Virus record (IMG/VR): IMGVR_UViG_3300038443_002533
Span: 1-64,000 of that record
DNA: 64,000 nucleotides
Reading direction: 5' to 3' (one strand)
Source: a virus
Taxonomy: Duplodnaviria > Caudoviricetes
The translations under genes and the position numbers were made by a program. Within the stretch, counting starts at the first letter, position 1; every line of letters begins with the position of its first letter. Under the pieces are notes generated by a model. The model searched no databases. It saw only the letters and a list, made by a program, of their open reading frames with translations, and had not been told where the DNA came from. This document shows positions 21,082-23,395 of this stretch, one piece after another.

Positions 21082-21582
21082 ATGTCTGACGATAAACTGA
21101 AGCCGGCTGCCTCGCACGCGGAGCTGACCGATAAGATCGAACAACTCGCCAAGCTCGGCAAAAACGGCGTCGGTGAAGCCCTGGACAACATCTACGAGCA
21201 GACCCTGCCGATCGACCTGCCCATCGCCACCGTCGAGCGCCTGCGCGCCCACGACAAAGCCTTCATCGCTGCCAGCGCCGACGCCTTCGGCAACCTGTCC
21301 CGTGCCGCGGCCGTCGCCGATGCCAAAATGACCGAGACCTCGGCCCGCTTCCCGATGGTCGGCGGCTCGTACGTCGATTTCACCTGGGACCGCGAAGTCG
21401 AGCGCAACGCCGGCATCGCTGCCAAGGGCGAAGTCGCACCGAAGAAGACCGTCTACGGCGCCATGTCCGGCAAAGCAGTCATGGGCGGTTCCGACTCCGG
21501 CGCCGGCGAGCTGAACAAGGTGTTCAAGCGCCAGAAGCAAGCCGCCTACGACCTGTTCGCGCCGGCCGCTACCACGGCCTAA
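21082..21582 (+). CDS. Highly expressed hypothetical protein (166 aa)
   Basis: AAAAAGGA SD before ATG 21082 (ORF-track start 20917 is an over-extension); very strong C/G third-position bias like chmA/phuZ. Confidence 0.8.
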   Translation: MSDDKLKPAASHAELTDKIEQLAKLGKNGVGEALDNIYEQTLPIDLPIATVERLRAHDKAFIAASADAFGNLSRAAAVADAKMTETSARFPMVGGSYVDFTWDREVERNAGIAAKGEVAPKKTVYGAMSGKAVMGGSDSGAGELNKVFKRQKQAAYDLFAPAATTA

Positions 21583-21591
21583 GGACCAGCG

Positions 21592-21644
21592 CAACCGCAA
21601 TGCCGGCCGTAGCTTACCAGGCGCACCTACCGGCGTTGCGGTTG
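21592..21644 (+). other. 15-bp RNA hairpin
   Basis: CAACCGCAATGCCGG (21592-21606) pairs with CCGGCGTTGCGGTTG (21630-21644) with one U-G pair; 23-nt loop; followed by TTCTTCCT. Confidence 0.7.
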
Positions 21645-21870
21645 TTCTTCCTGAAAATCAATTGAGCGGTAATTGTGGATGACCGTGGTTGCTCATCCGC
21701 AGTAAGCTTGGTTGGGGGTAAAACGCTACCCTGTGAGTCGCTGTCGCGGCATGCGTGAGAATACCCGAAGCGGGAAAAGTGTGAGCCATGATTCCTCCCA
21801 GTCATTCCCCTAACTCGCTTCTGGTTGCAGTAACCTTCTGGCCCGTGGAGACATCGGCCAGTTGTAAGAA

Positions 21871-22025
21871 AGAGTGTTGCCAGAGTGGTTAAATGGTAAC
21901 GCGGTACAAGACAGCAAGGGTGGCTACCGTGAGCCGAAAATCTCGTTTGACAACAAACGAGCACCTGATCCTCTTCAAGAGGCCGAGGCCCTTCAATCTC
22001 GTGAGTTCGAATCTCACACACTCTT
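21871..22025 (+). ncRNA. tRNA-like RNA (155 nt) with a large multi-helix insert in place of the anticodon arm
   Basis: Perfect 7-bp acceptor AGAGTGT/ACACTCT; Ser/Leu-type D arm T8G9-CCA-GAGTGGTTAAA-TGG; perfect T arm GTGAG-TTCGAAT-CTCAC; ~104 nt between D and T arms; no encoded CCA. Confidence 0.75.
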
Positions 22026-22069
22026 TTGAAAATCCTAGCAAGTGATGCTGCTTCGTACCTCTTAAATGA

Positions 22070-22290
22070 AAAAGGTTGCTACCCATGGAGGGTACCAGCC
22101 CGGTAAGGAGTCACGTTCCAAGGTCCGGAGAAATCCGGTATATCACCGTGAGAAATCACGCGGTCTTGGATGAGCTAGGTGACAGATGAATCGGTTCCGA
22201 CTGATTCACTCTGGCTAAGGTGACAAGGTCCCCTGGACCCTGCGGACACCTTTTCGGATCCACCAGTTGCATGGCCAGAACCCACCGCTA
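22070..22290 (+). ncRNA. Highly structured non-coding RNA candidate
   Basis: TCCAAG/CTTGGA closes two GAAA-capped hairpins (CCGGA-GAAA-TCCGG; GTGA-GAAA-TCAC); also CAGA-TGAATC/GATTCA-TCTG, AAGGTG/CACCTT enclosing GGTCC/GGACC, and TACCC/GGGTA; no credible ORF. Confidence 0.6.
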
Positions 22291-22296
22291 GTAGAA

Positions 22297-22340
22297 ACCA
22301 CCTCAGCCTCCGGGCTGGGGTGGTCTTCTATGACCTTTTC
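22297..22340 (+). terminator. Strong Rho-independent terminator closing the ncRNA locus
   Basis: ACCACCTCAGCC-TCCG-GGCTGGGGTGGT followed by CTTCTATGACCTTTTCTTTTTTTTT. Confidence 0.85.
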
Positions 22341-22456
22341 TTTTTTTTTGTTTATAGGCGTTTTGAGGCTGTCGTTATGTGTGGATGACAGAAGTTACTC
22401 ACGTCAATAGAAAACCCCGTATAACGCGTTCTAGTCTTTCCTAACGGCATAATACG

Positions 22457-22483
22457 CCTCCTTCCCCATGACGGGGAAGGAGG
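22457..22483 (-). terminator. Hairpin downstream of the tail tube gene
   Basis: CCTCCTTCCCC/GGGGAAGGAGG with outer ATACG/CGTAT; flanked by CGGCATA (TATGCCG on the minus strand). Confidence 0.7.
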
Positions 22484-22501: not shown

Positions 22502-23395
22502 TTACACGTTGACTTGACGCTGTGCCACGGCATCCACGCTGGCACCGTAACCAACCAGGTTCGCAGCTTTGACGTCGGCCGAGATCTGGTCGATCATGGC
22601 TTGACGCATCATCGGGTTGGCCCCGACGTAGTTGACCGTGTTCAGGATCTGCTGGGCAAAAGCATCCACGCCAGCGCCGACTTGTTGCAGTGCGGTGAAC
22701 TGGACGTCGACGTTCAGCGTTTGCATGTCCTGGGTCTTGTCAGCCGAACCGACGATGTCGCCGGTGCCTTCCGGCATCATGTTGAAGCACAGGAAGGCTT
22801 GTTCGACTTTGCGGCCGTACGGATCCGGTTCGATGTAGAGCACCGTCGCGGTGGTCATGTCGCCCAGGTTGTCCGTCACTTCACCCGACGCATATGCGGC
22901 TTGGAAGGCGGCCAGGGTGGAGACCATCGGGAACTTGGTGTCCGGGTCCATGCCCGCGTACAGCAGCCACGCTTCCAGGAAACGCTGGATCGGACGACCG
23001 AAGCGTTCCAGGTAGGTATGCTTCGGCTTGGACTCGGCGCGCTTCATGTTCACCAGGTCTTGCTGGGTTTGACCCGAGCCACCGTACGGGTTCTGAGCGA
23101 ACTCAGCGGTCAGGCCGCGGTTCAGGCCTTCGACGTTGAGCCACTGGGTTTCGATCAGGGCGCGCAGGCACGCCACGAACTTGTCACCATTCGGGAAGTA
23201 CTTGAACAGCTTCGGGGCTTCGATCAGGATCGGGATGAGGTGACGACGGACGTACGCTTGGTTGTTGACCCAAGCCGCATTGTCCGGTGCCCAACCCATC
23301 TGGCCGCCATAGGTCAGATCGACCATGGGTGCCTGTGCTCCCAGCCCGTACGCTGTGCCAGCCTGAAGAATGGCACCATTAGGACGAGTAGTCAT
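22502..23395 (-). CDS. Tail tube protein (phiKZ gp30-like, 297 aa)
   Basis: Directly follows the sheath gene; strong codon bias; size and order typical of the phiKZ sheath-tube pair. Confidence 0.75.
   Translation of the reverse strand: MTTRPNGAILQAGTAYGLGAQAPMVDLTYGGQMGWAPDNAAWVNNQAYVRRHLIPILIEAPKLFKYFPNGDKFVACLRALIETQWLNVEGLNRGLTAEFAQNPYGGSGQTQQDLVNMKRAESKPKHTYLERFGRPIQRFLEAWLLYAGMDPDTKFPMVSTLAAFQAAYASGEVTDNLGDMTTATVLYIEPDPYGRKVEQAFLCFNMMPEGTGDIVGSADKTQDMQTLNVDVQFTALQQVGAGVDAFAQQILNTVNYVGANPMMRQAMIDQISADVKAANLVGYGASVDAVAQRQVNV

Follow-up and report, generated by a model that had tools for sequence, protein, structure and literature searches.

Structured phage RNAs without an assigned function, among them T4 rnaC/rnaD, GOLLD and ROOL, are an old open question. 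The T4 pair lies in the tRNA cluster and is processed from a precursor. The preQ1-II riboswitch is a three-stem H-type pseudoknot with an extra hairpin in loop 3 and a Shine-Dalgarno (SD)-like tract within the knot. T4 rnaC and rnaD (species 1 and 2 RNAs) are adjacent noncoding RNAs of 120-140 nt that are transcribed in sequence and whose function is unknown (PMC12685909). GOLLD and ROOL come from large phage loci close to tRNA genes; their RNAs contain pseudoknots and GAAA loops as well as a variable region, and a tRNA is sometimes embedded in them (PMC12286853). A further mark of these two families is a homo-oligomeric cage formed through intermolecular A-minor and kissing contacts. Pseudo-ToxI of Pectobacterium phage phiTE is a small intergenic pseudoknot RNA that neutralises a host defence protein (PMC3475682), and theta (minimal HDV-like) ribozymes are pseudoknotted RNAs found downstream of phage tRNA-like genes (PMC10879173).

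The DNA analysed here (the window) comprises the first 64 kb of a 272,470-bp phage genome that is complete and has direct terminal repeats; the phage is phiKZ-like, from its head protease, tail sheath and tail tube genes. At 22070-22290, an earlier note made from the letters had described a second discrete structured RNA, built on a three-way junction with twin GAAA tetraloops and following a tRNA mimic. The flagged element is real but compound: an uncatalogued, clade-wide pseudoknot (PK-A) and a private extension, together ending a modular phage RNA cassette.

The closest likeness is to T4 rnaC/rnaD, as adjacent phage RNAs without an assigned role, and to GOLLD for the variable region that can hold a tRNA. 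Unlike the T4 RNAs, those of the window trail a late structural operon next to a tRNA mimic that does not decode, and they are exchanged among relatives. With GOLLD/ROOL the locus shares pseudoknots, GAAA loops, a variable region and tRNA proximity, but the cassette has no universally conserved 3′ domain, its modules assort independently, its zone spans ~320-860 nt, and the GOLLD and ROOL covariance models gave no match. Pseudo-ToxI is taken as the working model for a decoy role, although 36-nt tandem repeats are absent here and PK-A is 47-60 nt long with a third stem; the ToxI model (RF02519) had its best matches in the genome at E 4.9-7.6, none of them at the locus, which contains no tandem unit. 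The position downstream of a phage tRNA-like gene recalls the theta ribozymes, whereas PK-A has neither the HDV nested double pseudoknot nor a catalytic-C junction and is not adjacent to a tRNA 3′ end. PK-A has the same topology as preQ1-II, but no Rfam match and no downstream gene, and its purine tract is the 5′ strand of the first stem (S1). No cassette sequence matched any cultured phage (blastn, phage records), and the literature searched, with incomplete coverage, held no description of the cassette or of PK-A. The locus offers 14 natural cassette versions that differ by gain, loss and reordering of small uncatalogued folds and whose modules are separable for expression and testing; PK-A and the pseudoknot of the 5′ core described below are candidate new RNA motifs, from uncultured phages of a small clade.

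The noncoding cassette and its relatives

The flagged segment is the 3′ end of a noncoding cassette that runs from a late-operon ORF to a strong terminator, ~760 nt (from the stop at 21582 to 22294-22349) without a credible gene. The features surrounding the segment are as follows.

21082-21582, plus strand: 166-aa ORF that closes the protein genes of the late head-protease operon and at whose stop the cassette begins
21592-21644, plus strand: long hairpin directly 3′ of the stop codon, with a conserved loop motif at 21616-21626 (inverted repeat I2; in 11 of 13 relatives)
21655-21760, plus strand: 5′ core, a long stem followed by an H-type pseudoknot with a loop-3 hairpin (alignment A5)
21788-21805, plus strand: hairpin with an anti-SD-like CCUCC loop (also in relatives L001, L002 and L048)
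21869-22026, plus strand: tRNA mimic in which a multi-hairpin insert takes the place of the anticodon arm (L037 and L044 have this type)
22294-22349, plus strand: intrinsic terminator, a GC-rich stem followed by TATG and a U tract (same position in relatives)
22457-22483, minus strand: hairpin just beyond the end of the converging tail tube gene (inverted repeat I4; conserved in relatives)
22502-23395, minus strand: phiKZ-like tail tube gene, synteny anchor (PHROG 3185; PF23806 in close homologues)

The 166-aa ORF matched no Pfam or PHROG family; the tail tube gene, which converges on the cassette from the right, matched 288 phage records, and the hairpin beyond its end is probably its terminator. 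No sigma70-like promoter was found in or before the cassette, so the cassette appears to be co-transcribed with the late operon. The terminator stem (22297-22324) had a pairing probability of 1.0 and formed in every context folded. Rfam and ARAGORN gave no match within the window, the tRNA mimic itself not being called by ARAGORN, and Rfam gave none on L039 or L001; small ORFs in the cassette, such as one of 35 aa at 22066-22173, have neither an SD sequence nor conservation. On both strands, TATG follows nearly every terminator hairpin (22329 and 22488 in the window, and in relatives); we take it to resemble the phiKZ late-promoter motif.

Relatives were gathered through the flanking proteins, giving 13 distinct syntenic loci (designated L with a number) whose tail tube proteins are 67-89% identical. 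A noncoding zone of ~320-860 nt from stop to terminator lies at the same place in 13 of 13. Downstream of the shared hairpin and 5′ core the modules differ and include two tRNA-mimic types, the anti-SD hairpin, another knot-like module and others; comparison of the loci shows independent assortment of modules among the relatives. At distant phiKZ-like loci and in two Erwinia phages no comparable gene-free gap was seen, as judged by ORF spacing alone.

In the 5′ core, S1 occupies 21715-21732 and the loop at 21723-26 pairs with 21753-56. Alignment A5 (10 sequences) had 91% of cells paired and 19 cells with a compensatory change (0 of 500 shuffles). This knot, found in 9 of 13 relatives with strong covariation, is probably the best-supported new motif at the locus; it has a three-stem topology like that of PK-A and no Rfam match. 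Possible pairing partners for the CCUCC loop of the next hairpin are ribosome-binding sites and purine leaders like the one in PK-A.

Several other elements recur in these zones. The second tRNA-mimic type is inserted into a stem tip inside the noncoding zone of L002, L037 and L039, and the same stem is a plain short hairpin in the window (21834-21863) and in L044. A single-stranded linker of the GYAGUAAAC type is repeated between hairpin modules in L037, L039, L044 and L004 and occurs in the window at 21826 and 22289; it is a candidate processing or recombination site. A further module (a closing stem, AACAUU, and GGGG pairing with CCYC) lies mid-zone in L001-L005, L043 and L048 and is absent from the window genome.

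The flagged segment and the PK-A pseudoknot

All motifs named in the earlier note were located: TCCAAG (22117-22) with CTTGGA (22165-70), GAAA-capped stems at 22125-38 and 22147-60, AAAAGGT (22070) with ACCTTTT (22248), AAGGTG (22217) with CACCTT (22247), and the repeat copies at 22174 and 22214. The segment folded better than its dinucleotide shuffles (z = -2.38, 5 of 200 shuffles; -2.19 in a second run), the minus strand giving z -1.5, and z values of -2 to -3.4 occur in coding windows of the same genome as well. In shuffles, a pair of GNRA hairpins with 5 bp or more had p = 0.0024. Three special-tetraloop hairpins of at least 5 bp (GAAA, GAAA, UCCG) occurred in 0 of 5000 shuffles and none on the minus strand, in a test to which the UNCG class was added post hoc and in which the two GAAA stems share an 8-mer. 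This strand-specific trio is a stronger sign of RNA-level selection than the fold z. The earlier note is supported in that a structured, noncoding RNA of the plus strand runs up to a strong terminator, and the segment divides as follows.

22074-22100, plus strand: hairpin H1, 10 bp, pentaloop AUGGA with one CsrA/RsmA-type GGA loop (z -2.6)
22105-22151, plus strand: likely PK-A, a three-stem H-type pseudoknot (family pairing and descriptor)
22110-22183, plus strand: nested alternative fold, the earlier three-way junction (z -2.7 to -2.95; only in this genome)
22125-22138, plus strand: GAAA-capped 5-bp hairpin common to both competing folds (probability 0.95-0.96)
22160-22288, plus strand: domain B, predicted when PK-A forms (folding with the second knot stem, S2, forced; no homologue)
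22187-22208, plus strand: 9-bp hairpin with a UCCG (UNCG-type) loop, common to both folds (probability 0.96-0.97)

The inner stem of H1 had a probability above 0.9 in all contexts, and H1 was not found in relatives; the UCCG hairpin had z -2.5 on the plus strand and -1.1 on the minus strand.

The comparison shows PK-A to be a family among the relatives: S1 joins a purine leader to a pyrimidine tract, the intervening bases pair 27-40 nt downstream (S2), and loop 3 carries one or two variable hairpins, often GNRA-capped. It is kept at the same locus in nine relatives, with compensatory changes. A covariance model (R3) was built from the last module before the terminator of L003, L039, L043 and L044; its top two matches in 99 kb were the terminal modules of L001 and L005 (E 0.02 and 0.05), with that of L048 fourth (E 0.45), which joined two module groups earlier treated as separate. 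In the form of L001, L002 and L048, pairing over all four helices reaches 97.6% of cells, and 6 pairs are compensatory, one of them in the knot helix. In the other group (alignment A8) the paired cells amount to 86% for S1 and 100% for S2, a result that is not statistically significant; these covariation counts rest on 3-4 related sequences. S2 shows two or three pair types at each of its five positions. No conserved start codon follows the SD-like leader.

At the window site, S1 would be formed by GGAG (22107-10) and UUCC (22116-19) and S2 by UCACG (22111-15) and CGUGA (22147-51), enclosing a 27-nt loop 3 with the GAAA hairpin of 22125-38; S1 has only 4 bp, and all S1 and S2 pairs are intact. 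A descriptor was written after this site had been seen (purine leader scored by a profile from seven relatives, a minimum of 4 bp in S1 and of 5 bp in S2, and a hairpin within a loop 3 of 27-40 nt), and the site carries every element of this post hoc pattern. It is the single match in the window cassette and ranks first in 545 kb over both genome strands (shuffle p 0.002-0.003), with a score of 10.3 against 10.2 for a genome match at 182471 and 9.3 for minus-strand false matches. L050, whose S2 is the same as here, and L004, whose S1 is the same, were recovered untrained at lower scores, and L003 and L043 were missed on leave-one-out. The covariance models, built from 3-4 sequences and without the knot, gave E 0.34 (R3) and no match (R1) at the site. 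Membership of the window site in PK-A is on this comparison likely. A PK-A subtype pattern had 55 viral matches, nearly all within ORFs; the best, in L080, was rejected as chance, since it lies in an unrelated low-GC element, antisense to a protein-gene remnant. Separately, L080 carries a drum RNA at 1926-2039 (RF02958, 100 bits), an unrelated locus.

The remainder of the segment, more than half of it, has no homologue: 22152-22290 gave none by BLAST, pattern or covariance model, nor did the flagged sequence as a whole by these means or by alignment. Blastn of four cassette versions against 50,697 phage records returned chance or terminator matches only; DNA searches and a single-sequence covariance model (R2) found no match in five relative genomes and the 13 loci; exact patterns in viral and genome contigs gave none or unrelated matches; and pairwise alignment of the segment with the relatives' zones gave nothing significant. 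By-eye likenesses to hairpins of L001, L002, L004 and L051 were dropped, pairwise alignment being without significance.

Competing folds of the segment

The nested fold consists of the helix 22117-22/22165-70, the second GAAA stem and a GUCAC/GUGAC helix. It and PK-A are mutually exclusive, both needing 22116-19 and 22147-51. The helices of the three-way junction are present and belong to the minimum-energy fold, but they have no support in relatives and compete with the conserved pseudoknot; one discrete second RNA on a twin-GAAA junction is not upheld, since the comparison favours a pseudoknot built from the same bases. Even in nested models, the probability of the second GAAA loop is only 0.20-0.27. 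The eye-catching junction is, by comparison among relatives, probably not the conserved structure.

With PK-A formed, domain B is predicted to consist of a closing helix (22160-64/22284-88), a long bulged stem and a three-way junction. The two pairings that the earlier note saw as competing fared differently: the AAGGUG/CACCUU helix forms in domain B, and the long-range AAAAGGU/ACCUUUU closure had a probability of ~0 across six folding contexts. The gapped repeat is present, but taken alone is marginal (p = 0.04); in the domain B model both GGUG copies pair with a CACC, which would explain it. A possible loop-junction knot (22196-200/22254-58) had a null p of 0.12, domain B alone folds with z -1.4, and it shows no covariation.

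Rough energies were -66.6 kcal/mol for the junction state and -59 to -64.5 for the PK-A state, or -60 to -71 with a second knot, a range that depends on the assumed knot penalty; PK-A thus lies 2-8 kcal/mol above the junction fold unless the second knot forms. Energies cannot decide between the two, comparison favours PK-A, and a switch between them is possible.

Proposed role and rival explanations

The segment is probably co-transcribed with the tRNA mimic, as the earlier note held, there being no promoter-like site or convincing terminator between them. It is not a fixed partner of the mimic, because the other two phages with this mimic type carry other sequence 3′ of it, a terminator directly after it in L037 and a 60-nt PK-A module alone in L044; conversely, eight relatives have PK-A without this mimic in the cassette.

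On our best explanation, to which we give roughly an even chance (about 0.5), the flagged segment would be the last cargo slot of a swappable, RNA-only cassette at the 3′ end of the late operon, with PK-A (22105-22151) as its conserved part, a private 130-nt domain between PK-A and the terminator, and a putative decoy role. tRNAs are processed by RNase P, RNase E and 3′ exonucleases (PMC10879173). More tentatively, and by analogy, host enzymes of this kind might cut the late transcript around the tRNA mimic and release a stable 3′ RNA of ~310 nt (22027-22340), protected by the terminator, which could bind proteins as a scaffold or as a decoy, its targets being for instance anti-phage or RNA-binding proteins of the host. 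With a reading frame, a regulated gene and a catalytic core all absent, binding to protein is the ordinary role that is left. A host-phage arms race would be expected to turn modules over quickly, and fast replacement of compact knots suits decoys aimed at proteins of the host, of the kind that pseudo-ToxI is in phiTE. An extended version, rather unlikely, would have these jumbo phages carry, behind a late operon, a set of small RNAs (three-stem pseudoknots and multi-helix forms) that can be exchanged for one another, are cut out at mimics and each decoy a different host RNA-binding defence protein, with the last RNA here bistable or doubly pseudoknotted.

The main rival to a decoy makes PK-A a cis element of the 3′ end, which would shield the transcript from 3′ exonucleases or tune termination, with domain B as a displacing insertion. 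In eight relatives the distance from the end of S2 to the terminator stem is 7-10 nt, and in L043 it is ~8 nt, because of which PK-A appears usually to be the 3′-most RNA of the transcript; but the usual spacing is lost in the window, where PK-A lies 146 nt upstream, and in L004 (573 nt), L037 and L051 have the same kind of terminator without PK-A, and the terminator stem is already strong, so that we consider a cis role unlikely. A two-state switch, in which the three-way-junction fold would take over from a PK-A formed during transcription, draws on the transcript prefix ending at 22151, which folds S2 and the GAAA hairpin, on prefix folds that change between 22156 and 22170, on strands 22156-60, 22165-70 and 22179-83, each of which competes with one PK-A strand, and on states lying within a few kcal/mol; it is nevertheless quite improbable, as the competing strands are missing from every relative, no gene lies downstream for a switch to control, and the terminator forms in each context folded. 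We give still less weight to decaying or neutral filler, that is, a PK-A relic and locally duplicated hairpins tolerated in an untranslated 3′ region: the lack of homologues for 22152-22290, the weak z of domain B, the z values of coding windows and repeated 8-mers suggestive of duplication are consistent with it, but strand-specific special tetraloops and G-U wobbles, the intact pairs of S1 and S2, and the filling of the locus with folded modules in every relative argue otherwise.

Least probable is the ribozyme reading, in which the earlier note's separate tertiary-folded, twin-GAAA three-way-junction RNA would trim the tRNA mimic. The junction does belong to the minimum-energy fold (z -2.95), its GNRA hairpins are significant (p 0.0024), and theta ribozymes beside phage tRNAs are a precedent (PMC10879173). 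However, the second GAAA loop has a probability of ~0.2, the segment begins ~45-80 nt after the mimic and is absent from the other two phages that carry it, and no known catalytic core or Rfam match at E up to 10 was found. A loose HDV-like/theta descriptor, run without a positive control, had no plus-strand match in 21583-22345 and matched 6 of 100 shuffles; the nested double pseudoknot P1-P2-P3-P1.1 with the catalytic C first in J4/2 is absent, as is a theta-type cleavage site at the tRNA 3′ end (the mimic ends at 22026, the first stable helix begins at 22074 and PK-A at 22105). Core patterns of hammerhead, twister and pistol ribozymes were found on neither strand of any zone. The repeated motif was rejected as an HDV J4/2 on the HDV-core search, and a loose HDV match in L002 has no counterpart in L001 or L048. 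Among other RNA classes, a tmRNA (tRNA-like domain, pseudoknots and tag ORF) was found by neither ARAGORN nor Rfam, and the single GGA loop (H1) in the predicted folds does not make a CsrB/RsmZ-type sponge.

Some further observations concern the surroundings of the cassette. Genes for Hcp, Rap1a and Tae4 (type VI secretion tube, immunity and peptidoglycan amidase) lie between the terminator and the tail tube gene in some relatives (L037, 3840-5190; L039; L051, 4071-5398). A tRNA mimic lies upstream of the 166-aa ORF, and not in the cassette, in L003 (6180-6040, minus strand) and L041 (2320-2455). A second tRNA island (G000, 162200-164100) contains tRNA-Gln, tRNA-Asn and several look-alikes with replaced anticodon arms.
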